NCBI GenBank assembly: GCA_001029695.1
Contig: CP011211.1
Location: 390,001-422,000, forward strand
Reading direction: 5' to 3'
DNA length: 32,000 nt
Source of the DNA: Candidatus Saccharimonadota bacterium
Lineage (GTDB): Bacteria > Patescibacteriota > Saccharimonadia > Saccharimonadales > Saccharimonadaceae
The first letter of the stretch is position 1. Each line of letters begins with the position of its first letter. Positions 11,766 through 30,752 of this stretch are shown here, in pieces. The notes under the pieces were generated by a model. It did not search any database. It was not told where the DNA came from and worked only from the letters and a program-made list of their open reading frames with translations. Both the position numbers and the translations under genes were made by a program.

Positions 11766-13184
11766 CTATTCGAGAACGCGCACGCGTATTGTGTCGGTGC
11801 CCCCAATAAGACCCGGTTGCCGTCCACTAACGATCGCGACAGTGATTTGATCATCATCGCCGAAGAAGCCTTCCTTTTTTAGCTCCTTAGCAAGCTCAAA
11901 GCCCGCTTTTTCACCATCAGGACGCAAGAAGCTTTTGTTTGCATAGCTTAGCGCAAGTTGCTGCGCAGCGCGTGGCTCACTTGTTACGCTGATAATTGGA
12001 AGATTAGGGCGTACCGCTGCGATACTTGCCGCCGTCGCACCAGAACGAGTCTCTGCCACGATAGCACTTGCACCTACAGCCTCAGCAAGACTTACAGCAG
12101 CACTTGCGATCGCTCGGCGCGCAGACTTCTTTCCCTGTAGTATGTCGGTAATCGGCGCAACCTCAATATGCTCTTGAGTATAGAGAATAACACGCTTCAT
12201 CGCTGCAACTGTCTCAAGCGGATAGCTACCGTTTGCCGTCTCGTCACTCAGCATCACAGTGTCAGCCCCAAGGATAACAGCGTTTGCCACGTCACTCACT
12301 TCGGCGCGAGTTGGCTCAGGGGCATCAACCATACTTGCCATCATCTGGGTTGCAACTATGCTCAACTTACCGTATTTTCGACAAAGCGCAATGATCTTTC
12401 GTTGCACAACCGGAACAACTTCCGCTCCTGCCTCAACGGCCAAGTCACCGCGTGCTACCATGACGCCGTCACTTACCTTTACAATCTCTTCGAGCACGTC
12501 ATCTTTGATTGCGGCTTTTGTCTCAATCTTCGGGATGATCTGAGCTGTCGAGCCCAATCCGACAAGGATCTGGCGTAGGTTGTTGATATCATCAGCGGAC
12601 TGCACAAAGCTCAATGCGACATAATCGATATCTTTCGTTGCTCCGTATTCGACGTCCTTTAAATCTTTCGGTGTAAGAATATCACCACCAAAATCAGTGT
12701 CCGGCAAATTGATACCTTTTCTACTCATAAGCGTGCCGTTATTTTCTACGCGTAATGTAATTGCGGTATCAGACGGAATATCAATAACTGTCGTGCGGAT
12801 CTTACCGTCAAAGATATAGATAGGCTCACCAACTTGCACCTTTTCAGCAAGATTATATTGCACAGGGTACGTATTGCCGTTATGTTCAGCGGCATAGTCA
12901 AGAATAATCTCATCGCCTGTCTTTACATCGACATTTTCAGTAAGATTACCGAGGCGGATCTTTGGACCCTGCAGGTCCTGCAGAATCGCTACCGGCTTGC
13001 CAAGCTTTGCGCTCGCGGTGCGAATCCACTCGATTTGCTGATCACGCTCCTCATAGCTACCGTGGCTAAAATTAAGGCGAAACCCATTGACGCCGGCTTT
13101 TGCCATTGCCTCAATTGATTCATAGTTATTAGTTGGTGGGCCAAGTGTGGCCAGAATTTTTGTACGTTTAAAGATAACACTCAT
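11766..13184 (-). CDS. pyk: pyruvate kinase
   Basis: Motifs TKILATLGP, NFSHGS, MVARGDLAVE and TQMMASM. Length 472 aa. Confidence 0.95.
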   Translation of the reverse strand: MSVIFKRTKILATLGPPTNNYESIEAMAKAGVNGFRLNFSHGSYEERDQQIEWIRTASAKLGKPVAILQDLQGPKIRLGNLTENVDVKTGDEIILDYAAEHNGNTYPVQYNLAEKVQVGEPIYIFDGKIRTTVIDIPSDTAITLRVENNGTLMSRKGINLPDTDFGGDILTPKDLKDVEYGATKDIDYVALSFVQSADDINNLRQILVGLGSTAQIIPKIETKAAIKDDVLEEIVKVSDGVMVARGDLAVEAGAEVVPVVQRKIIALCRKYGKLSIVATQMMASMVDAPEPTRAEVSDVANAVILGADTVMLSDETANGSYPLETVAAMKRVILYTQEHIEVAPITDILQGKKSARRAIASAAVSLAEAVGASAIVAETRSGATAASIAAVRPNLPIISVTSEPRAAQQLALSYANKSFLRPDGEKAGFELAKELKKEGFFGDDDQITVAIVSGRQPGLIGGTDTIRVRVLE

Positions 13185-13191
13185 ATGGACT

Positions 13192-13199
13192 ATTATACA
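13192..13199 (-). promoter_or_regulatory. -10 box TGTATAAT 7 nt upstream of the pyk ATG (leaderless architecture)
   Basis: The minus strand reads gagagGTGTATAATagtccatATG. Confidence 0.5.
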
Positions 13200-13210
13200 C
13201 CTCTCCCCTG

Positions 13211-14224
13211 TTATGTTAACGATAAATTGCCGCTATCTACCAAAAAACGAAAATTCCAGTCATCATCCTGCTCTGTTTTGTAGCTCCAATAAAACCATCC
13301 CGCAGCCGCTTCGTAGGTAGATAACTGCGCTTCTATATACTGATTGCGTAGTTCTATACGCCGCTGATGATCCATCTGCACATACACTTCTTGTGGCAAA
13401 ACTCCACTCCACTCACCTACTGCCACCGGCTGCTGTTGTCGTAGGTATCGTAGTTGGCGATATCGTTTGACGCGTACTTTTTCGAGGTGACTCGATGGAC
13501 CACGCTGCTTGTCTCTCGCACTAAAGCATTGATAGAAATGACTATCCATAATCACCGGAAAGTTCTTGTGTGCACGAAGGGCGCCAGTGAGAAGGAGTGG
13601 ACGAAAGCCATCTCCAAACACAATCACCGTACCTGGTCGCGCAACTCGTATCAGCCGACGATATGCCTTTCGGTAAAAATGCACCAGCCGAAGCGTCGAC
13701 CAATCAAGCGTTGGCTCGTTGAGCAGTTCAATCCCCCATATACTCGTTTTGTCGTAGTACCTCTCTGCAATCTTCTCTAAAATCTCAATGGTTCGCTCCT
13801 GATGCCCTGAATGGTGAAGCCATTTCTCCGTTTTTGGCCTCCCGCTCCCGCTATGATCAGCCTCATTCTGCGCACCTGGTGCACCGTGAAGATCTAGTAT
13901 CACTTTCAGCCCGTACTTTTCGGCCATATCGACCGCCCAGTCGAGCTTCTCGATAGCACCTATATAGGGAGGTTCATCACCAAATATCCAATATCCAAAG
14001 GGAATTCTTACTGCCGTTACCCTGTTATCACGAAGCCAACGAAAATCCGCCTCTACTATAAAAGTATCGTGGTGATCTCGCAGCCGAGCACCGCCGCCCT
14101 TTACTTGCACAAGTTCATACTCATTATCTGCAGTAGTATCCTGAAAAACACTCGGCGTCATCCACTTTTCGAGCACAAGCCATCCGCCAAGATTCACTCC
14201 ATAAAGACACTGCTTTTTTGTCAT
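13211..14224 (-). CDS. glycoside hydrolase family 5 (exo-beta-1,3-glucanase/cellulase-like), no signal peptide
   Basis: Motifs GVNLGGWLVLEKWMTPSVF, ELLNEP (acid/base Glu) and VGEWSG (nucleophile Glu). I set the start at ATG 14224 (MTKKQ) because TATAAT lies 6 nt upstream. The ORF-track start at 14257 falls inside a terminator hairpin. Confidence 0.85.
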   Translation of the reverse strand: MTKKQCLYGVNLGGWLVLEKWMTPSVFQDTTADNEYELVQVKGGGARLRDHHDTFIVEADFRWLRDNRVTAVRIPFGYWIFGDEPPYIGAIEKLDWAVDMAEKYGLKVILDLHGAPGAQNEADHSGSGRPKTEKWLHHSGHQERTIEILEKIAERYYDKTSIWGIELLNEPTLDWSTLRLVHFYRKAYRRLIRVARPGTVIVFGDGFRPLLLTGALRAHKNFPVIMDSHFYQCFSARDKQRGPSSHLEKVRVKRYRQLRYLRQQQPVAVGEWSGVLPQEVYVQMDHQRRIELRNQYIEAQLSTYEAAAGWFYWSYKTEQDDDWNFRFLVDSGNLSLT

Positions 14225-18285: not shown

Positions 18286-18314
18286 TTTACTTTTATATAA
18301 ATTTGTTATATAAT
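18286..18314 (+). promoter_or_regulatory. sigma70-type promoter of the LPXTG surface-protein gene
   Basis: TTTACT (18286-18291), a 17-nt spacer, then TATAAT (18309-18314). Downstream SD AAAGGAG (18353-18359) lies 6 nt before ATG 18366. Confidence 0.6.
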
Positions 18315-18365
18315 CTAATTAAATCCAATAAATCTGGCTCGTGGAGTGCCAGAAAGGAGTTCGTA

Positions 18366-19820
18366 ATGAAAAATATCATCACCGCACTTAAGCGGTCACC
18401 AAAGCGCGCAGCTAGCCTTTTGGTTGTTGCGTTTGCCGTCATGATCCCAGCAGGTCTACTTGCATGGGGTCCAGCGGATCGTCCAACTTATACATTTGAG
18501 AAGCCTGCTGACCATGTCACATTCAACTCAATCACAAACAACCCAAGCCATGGAGACGAGCGTAATTTTGTTCAGATCCGTGACACAAGCACAAATGCAA
18601 AGTTTGGCGAAGAGGTTGCACTAACACCAGGCAAAGAATACGAAGTATATGTATTCTTCCACAATAACGCAGCAAGCAATCTAAATGATGCCGAGCACAA
18701 CTACAAAGGTGTTGCACAAAATGCAACTATGCGAGTACAAATGCCCGGATCTGTAAAAGCAGGCGAAAAAGCACGCTTTACAGGAATCGTCGGAGCAGAT
18801 AACGCGCAACCTAAAGAAGTATGGGACGAAGCATACGGCACAAGTGCAAGTAATGTAGCACTTCGTTATGTACCTGATTCTGCAACAATCTACAGCAATG
18901 GCGCCGTAGACGGACAGAAGCTACCTAGTACACTTCTTACAAGCGGTACAAAGCTTGGATTCAACGCGCTTGACGGTAAACTACCCGGCTGTAATGAGTT
19001 TGCAGGATGGGTAAAATATCGATTTGTTGTTGATCAACCAAACTTTAGTGTCGAAAAGACTGTTTCAGCAGTAGGAAAAAATGCATTTGCAAAATCAGTT
19101 AATGCAAAAGCAGGCGAGCAAGTTGAATACAAAATCCAGTACAAGAATACTGGCACTACTCAACAAAACGACGTCATGATCAAAGATACGCTTCCAAAAG
19201 GTATCTCATACGTTCCAGGTACAACGTATGCTGCAACTGGAAAAAGCAACGGCCAGTACGAAAAGATTAGCGATAACGTTACAACTAGCGGCGTCAACCT
19301 AGGTTCATTCGCACCAAATGCAAATGCATATGTTAAATTTACCGCAAAGGTAACCGACAACAACAGTCTTGAAAACTGTGGTACTAACACTCTCGTCAAC
19401 AAGGCAACTGCTCAGACAAATAACGGCAGCAAAGACGACACCGCTAACGTCGTCGTTAGCAACGACTGCGCACCAGGCAACATCAGCGTCTGTGACCTTT
19501 CTACTAACAAGATCGTTACTATTAACGAAAAAGACTTTGATAGTAAAAAGCACTCAAAGAACCTTGCTGATTGTGCAGAGAAGTGCCCGATCCCTGGAAA
19601 AGAACACCTTCCAAAGAATAGTCCTGACTGTGCATACTGCCCAGTTCCAGGCAAAGAGCACCTCTCAAAGGACAGCAGCGATTGTAACGAAACTCCAGTT
19701 GAGCTGCCACAAACCGGTATCTCAGGTGGTGCAACAATCGCCGGCATCGGCCTTGTAACTGCTGGCCTCGGCTACGCACTATCAAGCCGTCGTATCCGCG
19801 ACATGCTTATTGGACAATAG
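18366..19820 (+). CDS. LPXTG-anchored surface protein with a DUF11-type conserved repeat domain and a Cys-rich stalk
   Basis: Start at ATG 18366 with a strong SD. Signal-peptide-like segment KRAASLLVVAFAVMIPAGLLAWG. DUF11-like segment FSVEKTVSA...GEQVEYKIQYKNTGTTQQNDVMIKDTLPKGISYVPGT. C-terminal sorting signal LPQTG plus hydrophobic stretch plus RRIRD. Confidence 0.85.
   Translation: MKNIITALKRSPKRAASLLVVAFAVMIPAGLLAWGPADRPTYTFEKPADHVTFNSITNNPSHGDERNFVQIRDTSTNAKFGEEVALTPGKEYEVYVFFHNNAASNLNDAEHNYKGVAQNATMRVQMPGSVKAGEKARFTGIVGADNAQPKEVWDEAYGTSASNVALRYVPDSATIYSNGAVDGQKLPSTLLTSGTKLGFNALDGKLPGCNEFAGWVKYRFVVDQPNFSVEKTVSAVGKNAFAKSVNAKAGEQVEYKIQYKNTGTTQQNDVMIKDTLPKGISYVPGTTYAATGKSNGQYEKISDNVTTSGVNLGSFAPNANAYVKFTAKVTDNNSLENCGTNTLVNKATAQTNNGSKDDTANVVVSNDCAPGNISVCDLSTNKIVTINEKDFDSKKHSKNLADCAEKCPIPGKEHLPKNSPDCAYCPVPGKEHLSKDSSDCNETPVELPQTGISGGATIAGIGLVTAGLGYALSSRRIRDMLIGQ
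19584..19685 (+). repeat. two copies (54-nt period) of the motif CP(I/V)PGKEHL(P/S)K(N/D)S(P/S)DC in the stalk preceding LPQTG
   Basis: Copy 1 at 19584-19631 and copy 2 at 19638-19685. The peptide is conserved while many codons differ synonymously. Confidence 0.8.
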
Positions 19821-19916: not shown

Positions 19917-20141
19917 ATGGCAAAGCAGAAAAAGAAACGAACTAAAGTATATAGCGGCGCAGATGCAGCAACTTCTCGTCCAACAATCACCCGTGTTCAA
20001 GCAGCGAATCGCAACAAAGTATCACAATGGTGGTTTGACCATAAGCGTATCGCTAAACCAGTCGCAATAGCGGCGATTATACTCCTCGTCATAATCATCG
20101 TTATCGTCGAGGTCGTTCGTCTGGCGACTGGCTCGGCGTAG
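19917..20141 (+). CDS. small basic membrane protein, 74 aa
   Basis: MAKQKKKRTKVYSG... followed by a TM segment (PVAIAAIILLVIIIVIVEVV). I chose ATG 19917 over the ORF-track TTG at 19893. The 3' end overlaps the convergent kinase gene by 41 nt. Confidence 0.5.
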   Translation: MAKQKKKRTKVYSGADAATSRPTITRVQAANRNKVSQWWFDHKRIAKPVAIAAIILLVIIIVIVEVVRLATGSA

Positions 20142-22360: not shown

Positions 22361-23338
22361 CTATGCACGAATGCAATAAACTGCGTATACATTGTCATCC
22401 GGCAAAAGAATCGTTAGTTGGTTTGGCCCGAACCCAGCTTTCTCAATAAGATCTTTAACCTGATCAGATGTTCTTGGCAACACCCCCGGCCAACCAAGCC
22501 CCCTCTTATGAACCTGAAGCTGCGGGTGATCAGCATGCATATTTGAAAACACAAACGAACCGTCTTTTGGCATCGTTTCACGTATCTTTCTCAGCATCTC
22601 CACCGCCTCGCCCTCGTCAAGGTACTCAAAAAGCCCCATAGCCTCGATGATCTGCGGCTGAGCATCTACGACAAGTGCCTCGAGCACGCCTGGTCGCTTA
22701 AGGTCATGTTCGATCAAATGCACGCTGCTCTTTGCTATACCATACTCATGCGCAAGTTCATCTGCAAGCGCCAACGCGTTTTTGTCGATGTCACATAAAT
22801 AAAAATTCTTCTCACCATCAAACAGTCGCGCAGCATCAAACGTCGGCTGCCCACTGCCACATGCAATGCTCATCCAGCGAAGCTTTGCCTCGTCTTTATA
22901 GATACCCTGGAGGTACCATGACATCGCATAGGCACGCGATCGTAGACCTATAGCGTCACTCGAATGACGAAATAGATTACGGGTTATATAGTCAATCTTT
23001 TTTCCACTACGAAGCTTCTTTCGATCTGGGTTGTGCACATGAAATGTAGCAAACCCTCCAGGCATATACGCCGCCCATGCTCGCAGTGCTGGTGGCACAT
23101 AGATGATCTTGCGAATATGATTTTTGGGATGCTCAAAATCAAGATGGGGGCGCTTACGCAAGTACGCCTCCATAGCGCGAGTAAATAACGCAAACGTTTT
23201 TCGCTCCAGTAGATGTCGTTTTGTACTAAATCGGTCACTTGCATGAAGACGAATAGTCATGACTTCACCATTCAATGTTTCATCTAAAACTCGCAAGCTA
23301 AATTGATCACTCGTAAAATCTGCTGGCTTTTTGCTCAT
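22361..23338 (-). CDS. class I SAM-dependent methyltransferase with a ~150-aa N-terminal extension
   Basis: Motif I-like WMSIACGSGQPT, an acidic motif II residue in YLCDID, and post-I/III features (IIEAMGLFEYL). There is a 10-nt gap after the upstream kinase stop, with AAAGG 5 nt before the ATG. Confidence 0.75.
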   Translation of the reverse strand: MSKKPADFTSDQFSLRVLDETLNGEVMTIRLHASDRFSTKRHLLERKTFALFTRAMEAYLRKRPHLDFEHPKNHIRKIIYVPPALRAWAAYMPGGFATFHVHNPDRKKLRSGKKIDYITRNLFRHSSDAIGLRSRAYAMSWYLQGIYKDEAKLRWMSIACGSGQPTFDAARLFDGEKNFYLCDIDKNALALADELAHEYGIAKSSVHLIEHDLKRPGVLEALVVDAQPQIIEAMGLFEYLDEGEAVEMLRKIRETMPKDGSFVFSNMHADHPQLQVHKRGLGWPGVLPRTSDQVKDLIEKAGFGPNQLTILLPDDNVYAVYCIRA

Positions 23339-23348
23339 GAGAACCTTT

Positions 23349-25529
23349 CTATGCTTCGTTTATCTGTGTACGCTTTTTTGAAGTATCGACAGGTATCCTA
23401 AACCCGAACTTACTCCCCTTACCTTCAGTCGATGAAAAGATCATCTTACCACCATGTGCGGTGATTACTTTTTTCGCAAGGAACAATCCTACGCCAGTGC
23501 CGTCAGGTCGCTGTTTGCGTGCATTGGTTGCACGGAAAAACTTATGGAAAAGCTTCGCCTGCTCTTCGACTGGCACGCCAATTCCCGTATCGGCAACCAC
23601 AAATGCGAGTTCATCATCGATCTGTTCGAGACTCACTGTGATTGTCGTCTCTGGACGAGAGTAGTAGATAGCATTATCGATAAAGTTCATGATCACCTGG
23701 CGAACCTTTGCCTCATCAAGTTCGATAATTGGCAGGGTCTTCTTTGGTACCTTCACGCTTAACTTGATGTTGTGCGCTTCAGCGATGAGTCGTAGACTAT
23801 TCGTTTCCTGCTCAACAACACTTCCAAGATCTGTCGGGTGGTACTCAACAAGAAATTTCCCTGTTTGCAGGCGCGATACGTTCAGGAAATCACTAATAAG
23901 TCGCACCATACGCTCGCTACTGTTAAACGCTTCCTTCAATACAGTCTCTTGCTGTGGAGTGACGTTCCCCATGTCACCCTCGAGCACCATACTTAGATAG
24001 CCTTTTATACTTGTAAGCGGAGTACGTAACTGGTGTGACGCCATGCTAATGAACTCATCTTTCACTTCATCGATATGACGAAGCTGTGCGTTCGATGAAC
24101 GCAATTCTTTTGTCGCAACATCAATTCGCTGCTGCAGGGTTGCGTTGATTTCTTTAACCTCTTGGACAGATAGCGCGTTTTGAATAGCAACAATTAACTC
24201 ATCTGAAAGAGTTTCAAGCACCCTCACATCTCGGCTTACATAGCCTGCTCCCTTATGTTCACCTAAACAGAGATAGCCCAGCACGCCACCGCTATGGCGT
24301 AAAGGTAAAATGATAGCCAACCTATAAGATGTCATCATCCGTTTAATCGCCGTATCAATTTCTGGTTCATCACCAAGAATGACGGCGTCACCCCTCTCCT
24401 CTACATATACCTCAAGGCGTCGAGCATCCTCTATCGCAAGATACGTTCTGTTTTTAGTTCCAGATGACAGATAATGGCCAGCGGAATGGTATACAAAAAA
24501 ATATCCCTGCTCGGACTTTAGCGTACTCGCTAGCTTAACTGCAGCCCTCTCCAGGAGACCTCTAAGATCTGTCGTAGAAGCGAGTAGCCTACTCATCTCT
24601 GCGTAGAGTACATCCGTCTTGTAGTTATCTCTGTAGAAAAACTTATTTGTAATCTTATCAAAGAAAGATTTCACTGGCTGGAAAAAGAAAGCAAGAAGCA
24701 AAGCGGCAAAAGTATTTATAGGGCTTACGGCAGTCTCTCCGCTACCAGTAAATAAAATCCTAGACGCAGCATATGCTATCCCGTAGTAAAGCACCGAGAG
24801 AGTGGCTAAAACCCCTATATAGACAAGACTCCTGACAACGACAAAACGAAGGTCAAATAACCTATGGCGAATAACGCTATAGTAAATTCCAATCACTAAG
24901 AGAAGTACGGGAGAAACCCCAAACTCTGTAAATGCGAAGATACCCGTTAGCGACGGTAGGATGAATTGCATCGTTACAACCAATGGCAAGGACACCATCA
25001 GACTCAGTGCAATGACTTGAAGCTGGTTAAGCGCTGCGCCCTTCAGTTTACGCAAACCAATAATTAAAGTATAGAAGACTATCCCCATCATCATAAGTAA
25101 AGCAGCCCCATACAACAGAATAAGAGGACCGAAGATGACAGCGTATACATTTCCTTGCTGCTCTATACCTGCGACAGTCAAAGGAGTTGCAGCCAATAAA
25201 GCAATAATCCACAAGAAAGGTGTCATAAACTTTGTAAACTTTCGACTCAGTGACACACTCGCCAATTCGGAAACAAAATTCATCACCAGTATCATTGCTC
25301 CAAAAGCAGATGCGAATACTAAATAATTTGCTACCAGTGCAACACCGACAGACAGGTCAACGTTATTTGCTATGTGGTTAGAAGGGATCCATACCGCTAC
25401 CATAATAGCCAAAACTACAAATAATCTGTTCACATACTGCTTATAGCCACCCCTCAGGGAGACTAAAACTGCAAGCACCGTAAGAAGACCGACAATAATT
25501 ACATCAATAATCGCGTAGACACTCAGCAT
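23349..25529 (-). CDS. sensor histidine kinase (multi-TM N-terminal sensor + GAF-like + HisKA + HATPase_c), paralog 2
   Basis: Same architecture as 20101-22326. H-box SMASHQLRTPLTSIKGY, N-box MNFIDNAIYYS, G1 DTGIGVP, and the identical FFRATNARKQRPDGTGVGLFLAKKVITAH. Confidence 0.9.
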   Translation of the reverse strand: MLSVYAIIDVIIVGLLTVLAVLVSLRGGYKQYVNRLFVVLAIMVAVWIPSNHIANNVDLSVGVALVANYLVFASAFGAMILVMNFVSELASVSLSRKFTKFMTPFLWIIALLAATPLTVAGIEQQGNVYAVIFGPLILLYGAALLMMMGIVFYTLIIGLRKLKGAALNQLQVIALSLMVSLPLVVTMQFILPSLTGIFAFTEFGVSPVLLLVIGIYYSVIRHRLFDLRFVVVRSLVYIGVLATLSVLYYGIAYAASRILFTGSGETAVSPINTFAALLLAFFFQPVKSFFDKITNKFFYRDNYKTDVLYAEMSRLLASTTDLRGLLERAAVKLASTLKSEQGYFFVYHSAGHYLSSGTKNRTYLAIEDARRLEVYVEERGDAVILGDEPEIDTAIKRMMTSYRLAIILPLRHSGGVLGYLCLGEHKGAGYVSRDVRVLETLSDELIVAIQNALSVQEVKEINATLQQRIDVATKELRSSNAQLRHIDEVKDEFISMASHQLRTPLTSIKGYLSMVLEGDMGNVTPQQETVLKEAFNSSERMVRLISDFLNVSRLQTGKFLVEYHPTDLGSVVEQETNSLRLIAEAHNIKLSVKVPKKTLPIIELDEAKVRQVIMNFIDNAIYYSRPETTITVSLEQIDDELAFVVADTGIGVPVEEQAKLFHKFFRATNARKQRPDGTGVGLFLAKKVITAHGGKMIFSSTEGKGSKFGFRIPVDTSKKRTQINEA

Positions 25530-25537
25530 ACATATGC

Positions 25538-25543
25538 ATTATA
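25538..25543 (-). promoter_or_regulatory. -10 box TATAAT 8 nt upstream of the kinase-2 ATG (leaderless architecture)
   Basis: The minus strand reads gcgcTATAATgcatatgtATG. Confidence 0.5.
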
Positions 25544-25580
25544 GCGCTAAATCACTTTTTTGCCACAGCATTTGTTAAGT

Positions 25581-26516
25581 CTAGGCTGATCTACTATGCG
25601 CGTCTGTGCGCCTTTTTCTTGCATCATCCTGATAGTCAGCTTCTGGATTAAGGCCAAGCTTGGTTCGCGCAAAAGCCGCAGTAGCACCTAAGTAGTATGA
25701 CGCTCGCGGATATCGTATAACTCCCGATTTATTCGTATACGCATCCATAAATCGATATCTTGGAGCCCATGTTGGCTCCTTGCGATTATTCCCAATGCCG
25801 TACGTTAAGTGAAGAAATGCTTCTGTACTCCCCAATCCACTAGCCATATCAACCCCTTCGCTGATCGTCGGCAAAGGCGCACCACCTTGCGTAGCCAAAA
25901 GAGTTCTATAGTCACCATAAGGTGGAATATAAGGAACGCATCGACTAAGATCTACCTTCATTTCTGCAACCTCATCGAGTGGCATATCTTTTGGTATGCC
26001 CATAATCTTCTCAAAATCTCCACCCCTAAGAGATGTAGCGATACCCGCAAAACCAATATTCATCACAAGCAGTCCTGGAGTTTCCTGCTTCAGGGCCGTT
26101 CGAGCAAGCAACGTACCGATCTCAGGCTTCAAAAGCTCTGACTCATCTAGATATAAGTCTGCGCCATATAGAAATTCTTCAACGTTTTCCGAAATGACAC
26201 CATCATCATAAATCGTTACTTTTGGTGAAGCAGGTAGCGCCTCAACCATCTCCTTAAAAACCTCAGCTTTATTGCGACCTACGTTGGGTGTCGTCGCGGC
26301 AAGTACGCGGTTTGAATTCTCAGGCTCAAACGCCTCAGGATCCGCTACGCGGATCTCACCTACGCCCTTCATTGCTAGCTTATAGCCAAGTTGAAACCCG
26401 TCCCCGCCAACACCGGCGATTGCAACAGTAGAATTTATTAAAGCATCTTGCTCTGCCTCATTCCAAAAACCATAATTTCTAGAGAAGGCCGGATGATTTA
26501 TAGTATTTTTACGCAT
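25581..26516 (-). CDS. ThiF/MoeB/HesA-family (E1-like) adenylyltransferase-fold protein
   Basis: FSRNYGFWNEAEQDALINSTVAIAGVGGDGFQLGYKLAMKGVGEIRVADPEAFEPENSNR is a Rossmann GxGGxG motif in the ThiF arrangement. GRNKAEV matches the conserved Arg/Lys ATP-site region. SD GAGGAG lies upstream. Confidence 0.75.
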   Translation of the reverse strand: MRKNTINHPAFSRNYGFWNEAEQDALINSTVAIAGVGGDGFQLGYKLAMKGVGEIRVADPEAFEPENSNRVLAATTPNVGRNKAEVFKEMVEALPASPKVTIYDDGVISENVEEFLYGADLYLDESELLKPEIGTLLARTALKQETPGLLVMNIGFAGIATSLRGGDFEKIMGIPKDMPLDEVAEMKVDLSRCVPYIPPYGDYRTLLATQGGAPLPTISEGVDMASGLGSTEAFLHLTYGIGNNRKEPTWAPRYRFMDAYTNKSGVIRYPRASYYLGATAAFARTKLGLNPEADYQDDARKRRTDAHSRSA

Positions 26517-26589: not shown

Positions 26590-27342
26590 CTAGTGCCTTA
26601 TAGCATCTCCCCAGTACTGAAAAGTATTACTATTGGCTTTCATACCAGATAGTACATCAGGGTCTAACCTATTACTTAGCTCGTTCGTATCTATCATGAT
26701 GCCAAGATTATCGGTCTTATACTTTGGTATATACCGTGGATCTGCAACAACGCTAAACGGCACGCCATTTCTTTCGAGTTGCTCTTGTAGTTTTGTTTCC
26801 ACTACACCATAAGCTGGGCCTAAATCGTTTGCAATAACATGTGAAACGCCACGTGCAAATAATCTTGTTCTTAGATTATTTGCGTGAAAACGGTCATCGT
26901 GTCTCACTATTAGACGTGACACTTCTACTGCCTGACTAGGCGCCGGATTCTCGTCAAACTCATCTTTGAAAAATTCTTCAATTGGTAGCTTGGTCTCTTT
27001 ATCGTGTGTGTTTTTTTCAATAAGACGCATACACCCGACAACCGCAACGCGTGCTAATTGGTTCTCTAGTGCAACGATATGCACTGATCGCTCGTCGTCA
27101 ATATCAGTCTCGGTGCCGTCAACGCGCCTAGCATCTTCATCTAATATTTGCCTCTGGTCAATGTATACATTGGCTCGCAGTCGTAGATATGACTGAAAGA
27201 GTGCATCTTGGTCTAATGATGGATCGGTGTTGATACCAATAACTCCGATTGCGAATCTCTGATCAGGGTGGTGATCAAATATATCCGTCTCAACAGAAGG
27301 GGTAATATTGTGTGTCTTTATTGGATCGTAATTCATTACCAT
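26590..27342 (-). CDS. GNAT-fold N-acyltransferase of the autoinducer-synthase-like group (LuxI / N-acyl amino acid synthase-like)
   Basis: Motif series YLRLRANVY, GTETDIDDERSVHIV, VVGCMRLI, KLPIEEFF and AVEVSRLIV parallels the conserved blocks of LuxI-type and N-acyl amino acid synthase families. I set the start at ATG 27342, because the ORF-track GTG at 27366 sits inside the promoter -10 (GTGTATAAT). Confidence 0.65.
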   Translation of the reverse strand: MVMNYDPIKTHNITPSVETDIFDHHPDQRFAIGVIGINTDPSLDQDALFQSYLRLRANVYIDQRQILDEDARRVDGTETDIDDERSVHIVALENQLARVAVVGCMRLIEKNTHDKETKLPIEEFFKDEFDENPAPSQAVEVSRLIVRHDDRFHANNLRTRLFARGVSHVIANDLGPAYGVVETKLQEQLERNGVPFSVVADPRYIPKYKTDNLGIMIDTNELSNRLDPDVLSGMKANSNTFQYWGDAIRH

Positions 27343-27357
27343 AGGTTTATAGCTTTG

Positions 27358-27385
27358 ATTATACACTTTATTAAAAAAAAGTCAA
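27358..27385 (-). promoter_or_regulatory. near-consensus promoter of the acyltransferase/ThiF-like genes
   Basis: On the minus strand, TTGACT (27385-27380), a 16-nt spacer, then TATAAT (27363-27358) preceded by TG. Confidence 0.65.
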
Positions 27386-27419
27386 TACCAACATAACCTG
27401 CTAGCTCTTACTGGGAACA

Positions 27420-27428
27420 TGCTACAAT
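27420..27428 (+). promoter_or_regulatory. extended -10 promoter TGcTACAAT 6 nt upstream of the response-regulator ATG (leaderless architecture)
   Basis: Sequence aTGcTACAATatacctATG, with no SD. Confidence 0.5.
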
Positions 27429-27434
27429 ATACCT

Positions 27435-27806
27435 ATGACCAAAATTGCAATCATCGAAGACGACTCAGTCATTAACCAAATGTACCGTATGAAGTTTGAA
27501 GCCGATGGCTTCGACGTTCAGGTGGCAGACAATGGCAAGAGCGGTATCGAGATGGCAAAAACCTTCAAACCAGACATTATCTTGCTTGACCTTCAGATGC
27601 CAGAAATGACTGGAGACGAGGCGCTCGTACATATTCGCGGTAGTGACTGGGGTAAACAAATACCCGTCATCATCCTCACAAACCTTGGTGCAGAAGAATC
27701 ACCAAAGATCCTCAAGCAGCTTGATATACATAGCTATATAGTCAAAGCTGAACTTACCCCGAGCCAAGTTGTAGGACGAGTCAAAGAAGCACTCCACCTC
27801 AATTAA
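27435..27806 (+). CDS. single-domain (receiver-only, CheY-like) response regulator
   Basis: Acidic pocket EDD (aa 8-10), phospho-acceptor Asp in ILLDLQMP, Thr in IILTN, Lys in YIVKA. At 123 aa there is no output domain. Confidence 0.9.
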   Translation: MTKIAIIEDDSVINQMYRMKFEADGFDVQVADNGKSGIEMAKTFKPDIILLDLQMPEMTGDEALVHIRGSDWGKQIPVIILTNLGAEESPKILKQLDIHSYIVKAELTPSQVVGRVKEALHLN

Positions 27807-28700: not shown

Positions 28701-29249
28701 ATGGGAATTTTAACGTATCTAGCGCAAAGCTCGGACACTTCACTGTTTGACGATCAGCCATATACCTACACGTCAACATCGACAGCAACGCTCTCGCCTG
28801 AAGTGGCGTTCACTATCACAATTGTTGCATTACTATTTGCTGCGGCTTTATATGCCGTATCAGCGTATCTACTAAGTCGAATCTTTAAAAAAGCCGGTGT
28901 CGAGCAGTGGATTGCTTGGATACCCGTATACAACTCATGGAAACTACTCGAACTCGGGGGTCAAAAAGGCTTCTGGGCCGTGCTTGCATTCATCCCTATC
29001 GTCAACATTGCTTCTGCCGTGTTTATGTACATCGCAATGTACCACATAGGTAAAAAGCTACAAAAGGAAGACTGGTTTGTTGTTCTTGCAATCTTGGTAC
29101 CAATTGTATGGACTTTGTGGCTTGCGTTGGACGACTCTAAATGGCAAGGCGTATCCGACTCAACTAACGGCACTCCAGCCTTTCAGCCAGCAGCATCAGC
29201 TACCGCAACCGATGATAACGGTCAACCAAAACCACCGCTCGTACAATAG
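28701..29249 (+). CDS. DUF5684-like small membrane protein
   Basis: IFKKAGVEQWIAWIPVYNSWKLLELGGQKGFWAVLAFIPIVN is the characteristic DUF5684 core. There are 3-4 TM segments. Confidence 0.7.
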   Translation: MGILTYLAQSSDTSLFDDQPYTYTSTSTATLSPEVAFTITIVALLFAAALYAVSAYLLSRIFKKAGVEQWIAWIPVYNSWKLLELGGQKGFWAVLAFIPIVNIASAVFMYIAMYHIGKKLQKEDWFVVLAILVPIVWTLWLALDDSKWQGVSDSTNGTPAFQPAASATATDDNGQPKPPLVQ

Positions 29250-29263
29250 CTAAAATGCTATCT

Positions 29264-29305
29264 CCAAGAAAAAAGACTTATCTAACGATAAGTCTTTTTT
29301 CTTGG
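29264..29305. terminator. bidirectional terminator: 19-bp perfect hairpin shared by the convergent DUF5684-like gene and tRNA-Lys
   Basis: CCAAGAAAAAAGACTTATC-TAAC-GATAAGTCTTTTTTCTTGG. A/T tracts flank it on both strands. The right arm includes the tRNA CCA end. Confidence 0.8.
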
Positions 29306-29379
29306 AGGGCCAGGAGGGACTTGAACCCTCGACACCCTGCTTAAGAGGCAGGTGCTCTAACCAGCTGAGCTACTGGCCC
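29303..29379 (-). tRNA. tRNA-Lys (anticodon CUU), genomically encoded CCA
   Basis: Hand-folded cloverleaf: acceptor GGGCCAG/CTGGCCC, D-arm GCTC-AGCTGGTTA-GAGC, anticodon stem CCTGC/GCAGG with loop CTCTTAA, T-arm GAGGG-TTCAAGT-CCCTC, then T plus CCA. Total 77 nt. Confidence 0.93.
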
Positions 29380-29518
29380 GTATTGCAAAATAAATTGTAC
29401 TCTATTACTCGAGAAAAGGCAAGAGAAATCTCCCCCATTCCAGCAAAAGATTCATCATATTCTGTATATTCAATCGGCCCATACGATGCTATACTTAACC
29501 GTAAGAAGTTTGTTGTAT

Positions 29519-29992
29519 ATGAAGAATACTCACCCATCATCTGGTTTTACCGTTGTTGAGGTATTGGTTACCCTGGTGATCATATCGCTATTTATGGGGC
29601 TCTTTTTTCAGACCTACATGGCTATGGAATCACAACGTCTCGCAGTGCAGAAAACCGTCTTTGCTAGTAATATCGCTTATGCCAACTTGCGTAAATTCTC
29701 TGAACGCCCTGATTCAACAAAGCTCAGCTGCACCAACGACATGAACCTCGCTAGCAATCCAACCGCACCGGGTATCGAGATTGGCGGAAATAACACCAGC
29801 CCGAACACATTTGGGTTTGTTGGCGAAAATCTCACCACTTCACTTGGAACTGACGCTACTCAGCAGGTTCTTATCTTTGCACCAAATGGCTGTACGAGAT
29901 TTGCAGACATGCCGCTAAAAATAGTGTCTATAGTTAGATACGGACCCGCATCAAATCAGGAAGAGATCGCTCATGTATCATATGTCAAATAA
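29519..29992 (+). CDS. type IV pilin-like / pseudopilin protein (prepilin N-terminal cleavage-methylation motif)
   Basis: MKNTHPSSG|FTVVEVLVTLVIISLF has Gly-Phe at the cleavage site, Glu at +5 and a hydrophobic helix. I chose ATG 29519 rather than the ORF-track start at 29486. Confidence 0.8.
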   Translation: MKNTHPSSGFTVVEVLVTLVIISLFMGLFFQTYMAMESQRLAVQKTVFASNIAYANLRKFSERPDSTKLSCTNDMNLASNPTAPGIEIGGNNTSPNTFGFVGENLTTSLGTDATQQVLIFAPNGCTRFADMPLKIVSIVRYGPASNQEEIAHVSYVK

Positions 29993-30752
29993 AAATCGAT
30001 CCCAGGGTTTCACTATCGTCGAGCTGATTGTCGTAATATCAGTACTATCGATACTTATCGGCCTCATAGCGACAACGCTCCTAAATTTCTACCTATCAAA
30101 TATAGCCACGATCAACCGTACGACGCAGGCAAATGACGTCGCAAGCACGCTACAATCGATAGAAAAAAATGTATCGCTTGCGAGTAACTTCCTCAGCAAG
30201 ACATCTAGTTCGGCACTTGCAACACCACTTGGTCCAGAAAACTCTGCGATGCCTTGGATCTTCAAGACAGGTGAGCCGAACTACAACGTATTGATTGTCC
30301 AGAACTACGCAACAGATGGTACATCGAGCGACACAGCTCGGAAACTCATCTATTCATCTCCTGATTGTAAGTCGGATCCTGTCAAGAATACTCTGATCTA
30401 CTTCGTTGACACTTCTAGTACATTATATCGCCGCACTATCAGCGGACCCCCCTCTGTCTGCGGCGGCGCAATATCTCAAAAAACAACTTGCGCTCCAACA
30501 GCGACCTCATCACCACTATGTATCGGTGTAGACGCTGTCCTTTCCAGGAACGTATCAAAATTTCAGATACACTATTTTGCCAATAGCTCAGACCAGACAC
30601 CCGTGGACCCATACTCACAATCAGAGGTAACAGCCGCAGACACCATAAGAAACGCCAAAGCAATAAACATAACACTAGAGACATCCGAAAACATAAACGG
30701 TAAACTGAATAAGTACGCAAGTACTTTGCGGATTACAAGGTTGAACGAATGA
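29973..30752 (+). CDS. type IV pilin-like / minor pilin protein
   Basis: MYHMSNKNRSQG|FTIVELIVVISVLSILIGL is a prepilin motif with Glu +5. SD-like GGAAGAG lies 7 nt upstream. It overlaps the previous gene by 20 nt, and its stop overlaps the next start (ATGA at 30749-30752). Confidence 0.8.
   Translation: MYHMSNKNRSQGFTIVELIVVISVLSILIGLIATTLLNFYLSNIATINRTTQANDVASTLQSIEKNVSLASNFLSKTSSSALATPLGPENSAMPWIFKTGEPNYNVLIVQNYATDGTSSDTARKLIYSSPDCKSDPVKNTLIYFVDTSSTLYRRTISGPPSVCGGAISQKTTCAPTATSSPLCIGVDAVLSRNVSKFQIHYFANSSDQTPVDPYSQSEVTAADTIRNAKAINITLETSENINGKLNKYASTLRITRLNE

Follow-up and report, generated by a model that had tools for sequence, protein, structure and literature searches.

A 32,000-nucleotide stretch of a Candidatus Saccharimonadota genome (contig CP011211.1, positions 390,001 to 422,000 of the forward strand; the whole stretch is called the window here) carries an acyltransferase gene at the head of a conserved cassette, in which it is followed by genes for a ThiF-like enzyme and a membrane-bound sensor histidine kinase. 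The acyltransferase has the GNAT fold and belongs to the branch that holds LuxI and the N-acyl amino acid synthases (NAS). On balance, we lean slightly towards the view that the two enzymes form a two-step small-molecule pathway, yielding an N-acyl amino acid and then a carboxyl-activated, oxazolone-type derivative, and that this pathway is wired to the two-component sensor encoded beside it. The genes concerned are the following.

26590..27342, minus strand: acyltransferase (GNAT) of 250 amino acids, LuxI/NAS branch, assigned by Pfam, NCBIfam, a PDB-sequence profile and AlphaFold/Foldseek
25581..26516, minus strand: ThiF/E1-like adenylyltransferase of 311 amino acids, closest NCBIfam model PRK08223; 73 nucleotides (nt) 3' of the acyltransferase stop; present in 15 of 15 other loci
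23349..25529, minus strand: sensor histidine kinase (HK1) of 726 amino acids, ~8-9 transmembrane segments followed by GAF, HisKA and HATPase; 51 nt after the ThiF-like gene; present in 15 of 15 other loci
27435..27806, plus strand: receiver-only (CheY-like) response regulator of 123 amino acids, Response_reg only; divergent across a 92-bp intergenic region

The acyltransferase gene itself is an already known in silico hit. Bernard et al. 2020 reported Saccharibacteria matches to PF00765 at ~38 bits (e.g., OGL33891.1) with a kinase two genes downstream, and listed 18 LuxI-kinase pairs across the candidate phyla radiation (PMC7567580). Some homologues are already named acyl-homoserine lactone (AHL) synthase by NCBI and JGI. 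An earlier note on this DNA had called an acyl-signal synthase homologue in such a lineage noteworthy; its placement of the protein in this GNAT branch stands, while the novelty does not, given the listing by Bernard et al. 2020 and the database names. What is new is to read the locus as an NAS + ThiF module that lacks a nitroreductase and is tied to a two-component system. The ThiF gene between the LuxI match and the kinase is unmentioned in the text or supplements of Bernard et al. 2020 (PMC7567580), and we found no literature tying Saccharibacteria, Patescibacteria or the candidate phyla radiation to an oxazolone, ThiF or N-acyl amino acid pathway.

Family and fold of the acyltransferase

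The gene lies in a single long minus-strand open reading frame (ORF), 26590..27366, of 258 amino acids when counted from its GTG. All five sequence blocks by which the earlier note had recognized the protein were found in the translation: in the numbering of the 250-residue protein, YLRLRANVY spans residues 52-60, GTETDIDDERSVH residues 76-88 and EVSRLIV residues 140-146, together with VVGCMRLI and LPIEEFF. The blocks are not chance resemblances, since nine residues (R56, Y60, D83, R85, R106, K110, E140, S142 and R143) are invariant in an alignment of 46 family sequences.

Among Pfam families, the protein matched Autoind_synth (PF00765) at 38.3 bits against a gathering cutoff of 24, with residues 48-209 on profile positions 9-167 of 183, and Acetyltransf_5 at 35.6 bits against 22.4; FeeM (PF21926) fell slightly under its cutoff (23.7 bits against 27), and there was no match of the Acetyltransf_1 type. 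The best NCBIfam model was TIGR03694, which covers PEP-CTERM-associated, NAS-like proteins (56.3 bits against a cutoff of 111.95, residues 44-151). The curated AHL-synthase models were failed by a wide margin, NF010408 TraI with 27.0 bits against 292 and NF052393 with 17.6 against 250. A word-indexed search returned 46 clusters at 35-45% identity, of which the named ones are Saccharimonadales, and an exhaustive profile search returned 183 clusters (50% identity) at E<=1e-30; the family was thus found mainly in Saccharibacteria here. Among the homologues, P0271, P0275 and P0286 are members of 403-497 amino acids with an N-terminal extension of 160-250 residues and no Pfam match in it. A GNAT-ThiF fusion was considered for the long members (P0271, P0275, P0286 and P0297; 385-497 amino acids) and rejected, as their extra regions have no Pfam match.

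Searched against PDB sequences, the single acyltransferase sequence gave noise only; the family profile matched LuxI-family chains and no others, namely BjaI, TofI and EsaI at E ~1e-3. An AlphaFold model built from the family alignment (pLDDT 91.9, pTM 0.89) was then compared with the PDB by Foldseek. Ranks 1-11 were all AHL synthases (BjaI with E 1.4e-10, LasI, RpaI, MesI, TofI and EsaI), with E values from 1e-10 to 1e-6 and target-normalised TM-scores of 0.61-0.75, and FeeM (2g0b) came next after the LuxI enzymes (E 3e-6, target-normalised TM-score 0.70). The first generic GNAT stood at rank 18, and the query-normalised TM-scores of this group did not exceed 0.47, whereas most AHL synthases reached 0.55-0.59. 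It is hardly credible in this light that the protein is an ordinary acetyltransferase of the RimI/RimL kind with no lipid or signal role: the GNAT fold is shared and generic GNATs do stand lower in the Foldseek list, but their late rank and low TM-scores, the missing Acetyltransf_1-type match and the invariance of the LuxI/NAS signature residues all speak against it. The profile and structure comparisons that the earlier note had proposed therefore put the best matches outside the ordinary acetyltransferases, and its assignment to the LuxI/NAS branch is borne out by Pfam, by the PDB-sequence profile and by Foldseek on the AlphaFold model.

The LuxI signature, which we take to comprise R24, F28, W34, E43, D45 and D48 with the core residues R68, E97, S99 and R100, was mapped onto the family through a hidden Markov model alignment to BjaI. 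It is kept at eight of the ten positions (R56, E78, D80, D83, R106, E140, S142 and R143 in the window protein). The Phe28 position is Tyr in 46 of 46 family sequences, and the Trp34 position is never Trp, being Met in 31 of them, Ile in six, Phe in six, Tyr in two and His in one. Residues R85, S86, H88 and K110 are invariant and proper to the family, which is further set apart by extensions of ~45 residues at the N-terminus and ~40 at the C-terminus.

The family thus stands between two groups of enzymes. With the LuxI AHL synthases, of which BjaI, RpaI and MesI are coenzyme A (CoA)-dependent, it shares its best profile and structure matches and eight of ten signature positions, with Phe replaced by Tyr; it differs from them in never having Trp34, in its two extensions, in its obligatory ThiF-like partner, in the lack of a LuxR-type receptor among the window ORFs scanned and in falling far under the NCBIfam AHL-synthase cutoffs. 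With FeeM/NasY (PF21926) and TIGR03694 it shares the top NCBIfam match and the next structural neighbor after the LuxI enzymes, but it stays under both cutoffs (23.7 against 27 and 56.3 against 111.95), and a scan of window ORFs turned up neither exosortase nor PEP-CTERM genes.

These data bear directly on the reading that the database names imply, a canonical LuxI-type AHL synthase that would use acyl-acyl carrier protein (acyl-ACP) or acyl-CoA together with S-adenosylmethionine (SAM), its lactone being sensed by the kinase as LuxN senses the LuxM product and the ThiF-like gene being unrelated. The PF00765 score above the gathering cutoff, the exclusive match of the family profile to LuxI-family chains, the eleven AHL synthases at the head of the Foldseek list and the retained equivalents of R24, E43, D45, D48, R68, E97, S99 and R100, with F28 changed to Tyr, are all in its favor, as are the naming by NCBI/JGI and the LuxI homologues that Bernard et al. 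2020 list beside a kinase. Against it stand the scores of 27.0 and 17.6 bits with curated models that require 292 and 250, the higher score of the NAS model TIGR03694 (56.3), the consistent loss of Trp34 and the absence of LuxR/GerE-type receptors from the scanned window ORFs. An acyl-ACP donor is unlikely as well, given the reported lack of fatty-acid biosynthesis (PMC10633639). The remaining objection comes from the gene neighborhood.

The ThiF-like partner and the conserved cassette

Fifteen other loci (L001-L015) formed the comparison set, four of them obtained by exact-protein look-up (L002 and L003 with the same GNAT) and 11 from a species-level genome collection. All named records among the compared loci are Saccharibacteria; the collection was scanned with an exact peptide pattern, and its 11 loci, all from Saccharibacteria, are uninformative on spread beyond the phylum. 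The order acyltransferase, ThiF-like enzyme, histidine kinase on one strand was found in 15 of the 15 loci, and receiver-only response regulators, in one to three copies, lie upstream and divergent in 14. At several loci, the acyltransferase and ThiF-like ORFs overlap or abut. The earlier note had missed this context altogether, i.e., the ThiF-like gene and membrane kinase of all 15 loci and the divergent receivers of 14.

Compared with its window counterpart, the acyltransferase of the other loci is 34-44% identical, the kinase 40-60%, the ThiF-like protein 50-63% and the best receiver 55-81%. Such low identities across a kept gene order indicate that the cassette is old and that the acyltransferase is its fastest-evolving part. 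For 11 further GNAT/ThiF cluster pairs, the longest contigs listed are of the same size, which suggests that the paired genes share contigs. As separate observations, the faster divergence of the acyltransferase and the one to three receiver copies could reflect a diversified substrate or signal, and in L004 (2678-5901) an ABC transporter pair and a DDAH-like gene of the amidinotransferase fold, the latter on the acyltransferase strand, are inserted between receiver and acyltransferase.

Conservation of the pair in 15 of 15 loci, often with overlap of the two ORFs, and its recurrence in Rhodococcus (see below) make the ThiF-like gene no chance neighbor. Taken with the evidence above, this leaves a plain AHL synthase as an unlikely reading, which is probably wrong; the current naming of the homologues as AHL synthases is probably wrong too.

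The ThiF-like protein scored 71 bits with Pfam ThiF. Among NCBIfam models, PRK08223 came first (107 bits, nearly full length), followed by PRK14851 (85) and PRK14852 (66), with canonical ThiF at 56 and the Rv1355c family at 41.5; the top models describe ThiF domains that are joined to NAS and nitroreductase domains, an architecture that agrees with the OxzAB, TyzABC and TrzAS acyl-oxazolone pathways discussed below. In an alignment of Saccharibacteria, Rhodococcus and Desulfovibrio vulgaris sequences, which are collinear over the full length including a C-terminal half absent from other ThiF families, the adenylation residues G35/G37/G38/G40 (G-x-G-G-x-G), D59, N67, N69, R70, K83 and D124 are invariant, and D124 is the equivalent of D217 of TrzS, the ThiF-like enzyme of a known oxazolone pathway. 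The same alignment has no conserved Cys or CxxC motif. Intact adenylation residues together with the lack of a conserved Cys make the protein look like an active adenylating enzyme that forms no thioester or persulfide, and our analysis predicts an ATP-dependent carboxylate activator or cyclase.

Structural comparison was less specific. The model of the ThiF-like protein (AlphaFold pLDDT 93.2) gave non-discriminating Foldseek matches, with AclA (9egb), ThiF, MccB, PaaA and MoeB all at E ~1e-14 to 1e-11; for AclA (9egb), no paper was found in the literature. The closest sequence of solved structure is TcdA, the tRNA t6A dehydratase (E 4.5e-10). Like the predicted enzyme, TcdA is an ATP-dependent, oxazolone-forming cyclodehydratase, but its substrate is tRNA, and the match is confined to the Rossmann half, residues 23-137.

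Most characterised ThiF-like enzymes work on peptides, proteins or tRNA, and ThiF, MccB and PaaA are among the Foldseek matches at E values near the top one. Modification of a macromolecule, in which the E1-like enzyme would adenylate a peptide or protein C-terminus as MccB, PaaA and ThiF do and the GNAT would acylate the product or give immunity, is nevertheless very unlikely in our view. No conserved small ORF lies between or beside the two genes, which overlap at several loci; the features of classical E1 and sulfur-carrier ThiF/MoeB enzymes are missing (no persulfide-forming or catalytic Cys, no CxxC zinc motif, no ThiS/MoaD-like ORF); and the GNAT belongs with the LuxI/NAS enzymes rather than with RimL/MccE. 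A conserved small protein of 73-74 amino acids is encoded convergent to the kinase gene end at several loci (window 19917-20141, plus strand; L001 9909-10130, minus; L002 9904-10125, minus). Its N-terminus is rich in Lys (MAKQKKKR...), one transmembrane helix lies at its C-terminus, and no Pfam family matched it; being membrane-anchored and without a Gly-Gly or Asn C-terminus, it was rejected as a ubiquitin-like or peptide substrate.

Related modules outside Saccharibacteria were found by tblastn of plasmids. The archetype of PRK14852 is a 989-residue protein of the Nitratidesulfovibrio (Desulfovibrio) vulgaris DP4 megaplasmid pDVUL01 (L017 5062-8031), in which a FeeM-type NAS domain (150 bits) is fused to a ThiF domain (168 bits; 354 bits with PRK08223) and to a third domain of the nitroreductase superfamily. 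Annotated only as a ThiF family adenylyltransferase, it sits in a PEP-CTERM/XrtA exosortase locus, and this triple fusion suggests acyl-oxazolone-type chemistry in exosortase systems.

Rhodococcus plasmids and contigs (L016, L024, L025 and L027) carry a homologous two-gene GNAT+ThiF module with overlapping ORFs. Its GNAT aligns with the Saccharibacteria family profile at an hhalign probability of 96.8% (E 2e-10), and its ThiF-like protein is 33% identical to that of the window (E 6e-28). The Rhodococcus module family is tiny (7 clusters) and has no nitroreductase in the modules; in plasmid pN9T4-3 of Rhodococcus qingshengii (L016 6397-9280), an IS256 element splits the module. Gordonia and like mycolic-acid actinobacteria are described as hosts of an environmental patescibacterial parasite (PMC11880426), and gene transfer between epibiont and host lineages is conceivable. 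A ThiF homologue on a Bdellovibrio plasmid lies beside ABC-transporter and LolA-like genes, with no GNAT, and is uninformative. As judged from sequence, the NAS + ThiF pairing is kept across three phyla and fused in one.

A candidate two-step pathway

Acyl-oxazolone pathways are known from OxzA/OxzB of Pseudoalteromonas rubra (10.1101/2020.06.11.147165), from TyzA/TyzB/TyzC of M. tuberculosis (PMC10404671) and from TrzA/TrzS (Rv1356c/Rv1355c) of Mycobacterium tuberculosis and Rhodococcus (PMC12856293). Three parts produce the N-acyl oxazolones: an acyltransferase, an ATP-dependent cyclase that is ThiF-like, and a nitroreductase-superfamily oxidase that depends on flavin. OxzA, TyzA and TrzA N-acylate Tyr, Phe or Trp from acyl-CoA, and the ThiF-like part then forms the oxazolone ring by way of the adenylated carboxylate (PMC10404671, PMC12856293). 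The closest structural relatives of TyzA are FeeM and BjaI (PMC10404671). TrzS cyclises before it oxidises: the saturated N-acyl amino acid is what it cyclises, a saturated oxazolone builds up when oxygen or the oxidase is limiting or the oxidase is disabled, and D217 is required (PMC12856293). Elsewhere, NAS genes cluster with ThiF, nitroreductase and methyltransferase genes, the methyltransferases acting as tailoring enzymes in some of the NAS+ThiF clusters, and such clusters, with or without the methyltransferase, have been proposed for stieleriacines and kyonggic acids (PMC12479983).

The Saccharibacteria cassette shares with OxzAB, TyzABC and TrzAS a LuxI/FeeM-like N-acyltransferase gene directly 5' of a co-oriented ThiF-like gene (here in 15 of 15 loci) and the adenylation residues, including the Asp that matches TrzS D217. 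It differs in being embedded in a two-component system, in its sub-cutoff scores and in belonging to a bacterium unable to make its own fatty acids or amino acids. Nitroreductase (PF00881) was not found in the window ORFs scanned, within ±6 kb of L001, L002 and L004, or within ±3 kb of L018. Since TrzS cyclises before oxidation takes place, a ThiF-like enzyme without an oxidase would be chemically competent.

In the pathway that we favor, the GNAT would first acylate an amino acid at its alpha-amino group, giving an N-acyl amino acid; the most likely acyl source is acyl-CoA or some other activated donor taken from the host, and we infer this step from family membership. The ThiF-like enzyme would then adenylate the free carboxylate of the N-acyl amino acid with ATP, and intramolecular capture, most likely by the amide oxygen, would yield a saturated 2-alkyl-oxazol-5(4H)-one; OxzB, TyzB and the ThiF domain of TrzS serve as the model for this step. 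With no nitroreductase-type desaturase found, the product would stay saturated or the activated intermediate would go to another nucleophile, so the end product may be a saturated, reactive azlactone or whatever receives the activated species. Enzymes of the ThiF type require a free carboxylate; N-acyl amino acids offer one and AHLs do not, and this favors an N-acyl amino acid over a plain AHL as the product of the GNAT. Saccharibacteria are without de novo fatty-acid and amino-acid synthesis (PMC10633639), and both substrates would therefore come from the host.

The same two enzymes could be ordered or used differently. The ThiF-like enzyme might act first, adenylating a scavenged fatty or other carboxylic acid so that the GNAT takes the acyl-adenylate as donor. 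The lack of fatty-acid synthesis in Saccharibacteria, the full adenylation site without a catalytic Cys and the strictly kept pairing would suit such a scheme. We nonetheless consider it quite unlikely, because the characterised relatives TyzB, TrzS and OxzB take the N-acyl amino acid, made beforehand by the acyltransferase, as their substrate, the GNAT gene precedes the ThiF-like gene, and Rhodococcus and D. vulgaris keep the pairing despite normal acyl-CoA/ACP pools; the LuxI/NAS enzymes of the cited papers, moreover, all take thioester donors (acyl-CoA, acyl-ACP), not acyl-adenylates.

A lactone could also arise independently of SAM if the GNAT N-acylated homoserine or another hydroxy amino acid, the ThiF-like enzyme adenylated the carboxylate and the side-chain hydroxyl closed the ring. 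This would reconcile the LuxI-like residues with an obligatory ATP-dependent carboxylate activator. Ring closure after adenylation is established for the ThiF-like TcdA and OxzB, and the loss of Trp fits an amine substrate other than SAM, that Trp of LuxI enzymes presumably belonging to the SAM pocket. The scheme is purely inferential, however; the review PMC12596934 describes no ThiF-like lactone synthase, and the known relatives close the ring through the amide oxygen, giving oxazolones. We hold it to be as improbable as macromolecule modification.

Several points weigh against the oxazolone-type pathway that we prefer. The flavin oxidase, the defining third component of OxzAB, TyzABC and TrzAS, was not found in the stretches searched. 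The GNAT keeps most LuxI signature residues and scores higher with Autoind_synth than with FeeM, and the ThiF-like protein is under the curated cutoff of every NCBIfam model (PRK08223, 107 against 266); its putative place beside TyzB, OxzB and TrzS comes from the NCBIfam models and the alignment with the D. vulgaris fusion. The family profile gave no significant match to the FeeM domain of the D. vulgaris fusion, which consequently supports the logic of joining NAS and ThiF and not orthology of the GNAT. The lack of fatty-acid synthesis in these bacteria leaves no evident acyl donor, saturated azlactones hydrolyse readily so that the stable end product may differ, and the chemistry proposed for the family is a prediction from sequences and models. 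Finally, kept synteny with a kinase is no proof that the kinase senses the product.

Expression, a possible sensor arm and biological meaning

Two features at the 5' end of the acyltransferase gene concern its expression and its start codon.

27358..27385, minus strand: sigma-70-type promoter, TTGACT-16 nt-TATAAT, of the acyltransferase operon; 11 of 12 consensus matches
27364..27366, minus strand: GTG at which the mechanical ORF track begins; not accepted as the start codon, being directly next to the -10 hexamer and placed 5' of the expected transcript

The -35 hexamer TTGACT occupies positions 27385-27380 and the -10 hexamer TATAAT positions 27363-27358, with a 16-nt spacer between them; a score of 11/12 was reached by 7 of 2000 shuffles of the 80 nt upstream. 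The earlier note had presented this promoter as the best in the window. It is near-consensus as claimed, but it shares its score with a second 11/12 site at 13219..13192 (minus strand), the two sites seen comparing with 0.6 expected from shuffles. That other promoter (13192-13219, minus strand; TTAACA-16-TATAAT) is located where a GH5 cellulase-like ORF has its 3' end, just upstream of a pyruvate kinase gene (11766..13184).

A promoter with 11-12 of 12 matches within <=80 nt 5' of the ATG was present in seven of 15 loci, i.e., the window and six of 14 orthologous loci (L001, L004-L007 and L013). The distance from the end of the -10 hexamer to the ATG is 10-32 nt overall (10-11 nt in L004-L006, 15 nt in the window and 18 nt in L007), and no Shine-Dalgarno sequence was found between them at the promoter-bearing loci. 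With the -10 so near to the ATG, leaders of zero to ~10 nt are implied, and of ~8 nt in the window; the acyltransferase transcript would begin at a strong promoter close to its ATG, with a very short or absent mRNA leader.

The GTG at 27366 was rejected as the start because it abuts TATAAT and because both the N-termini of homologues and the database gene calls agree with ATG 27342: the homologues begin M-x-x-N, in line with the Met of this codon, and the database gene call, a 250-residue protein from ATG 27342, is the same at all six places retrieved. ATG 27342 is therefore the likely start codon on this evidence, and ATG 27336, two codons further on, may serve as an alternative. The argument of the earlier note, that the GTG lies inside the promoter and the real start further in, is supported by all three lines.

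Signs of near-leaderless transcripts were also seen elsewhere. An extended -10 element of the receiver gene, TGcTACAAT (27415-27434, plus strand), ends 6 nt before its ATG; TGnTAnAAT or TGnTAnACT elements stand 6-14 nt 5' of the ATG of the receiver gene in L001, L004, L006 and L015; and a 10/12 promoter-like site at 25538-25566 (minus strand) ends 8 nt before the kinase ATG. To judge by such motifs, leaderless or near-leaderless mRNAs may be common in this Saccharibacteria lineage.

Downstream of HK1, the window genome alone, and none of the 15 other loci, has two further genes on the same strand.

22361..23338, minus strand: SAM-dependent methyltransferase-like protein of 325 amino acids; Methyltransf_25 and Methyltransf_20 matches; no match in L001-L015
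20101..22326, minus strand: second GAF histidine kinase of 741 amino acids, a paralogue of HK1; 44% identity from ~residue 210 onward

No PDB sequence or NCBIfam model matched the methyltransferase-like protein, which may act as a tailoring enzyme. In the second kinase, the N-terminal ~200 residues, from the membrane sensor region, gave no BLAST match to HK1. The wider flanks (28701-30752, plus strand; 29303-29379, minus; 18303-19820, plus) encode a DUF5684 membrane protein, a tRNA-Lys(CTT), two prepilin-type (N_methyl) proteins and a DUF11/CLIPPER-repeat surface protein, and a flank of FolD, DUF5684 and DUF11 is kept at many loci.

The GAF kinase, probably co-transcribed with the two enzyme genes, and the CheY-like receiver or receivers would form a sensing arm for the lipid product of the pathway or for a related host cue. 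The 123-residue receiver has no DNA-binding output domain (Pfam: Response_reg alone), and receivers of this build imply a non-transcriptional output by protein-protein interaction. Synteny suggests a link between the pathway product and sensing by the kinase. LuxM/LuxN and CqsA/CqsS are signaling pairs of a synthase and a membrane kinase, and the cassette resembles them in placing the synthase gene beside a polytopic membrane histidine kinase, not a cytoplasmic LuxR-type receptor; it differs in that its kinase has a GAF domain and an unrelated membrane region, its regulator is receiver-only and product sensing is putative.

A bolder form of the idea, which we rate as rather unlikely, is that Saccharibacteria convert compounds taken from the host into a signal of a new class, which could be a saturated N-acyl-amino-acid oxazolone or another product of LuxI-like and ThiF-like enzymes, possibly even a SAM-independent lactone. 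The GAF kinase would read this signal, and CheY-like receivers would relay it to an output other than transcription, for example type IV pili or attachment to the host.

For annotation, the finding is a correction: homologues of this acyltransferase have been counted as evidence of AHL quorum sensing in the candidate phyla radiation, yet their ThiF-like partner points to chemistry of the N-acyl amino acid or oxazolone type. Without an oxidase, the cassette would be a natural minimal oxazolone pathway, and it could reveal what the ThiF-like step does alone. Saccharibacteria are obligate epibionts with ~1-Mb genomes from which most biosynthesis has been lost, and the sampled lineages retain a two-enzyme lipid-type pathway joined to a sensor kinase despite these reduced genomes. 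Should the product, built from host-derived precursors, serve as a signal or as a reactive acyl-amino-acid donor, it would bear on the sensing of density or host contact across the candidate phyla radiation. If the signal reading is true, this would be the first self-made signaling circuit described in the radiation and a new chemistry for LuxI-like enzymes.

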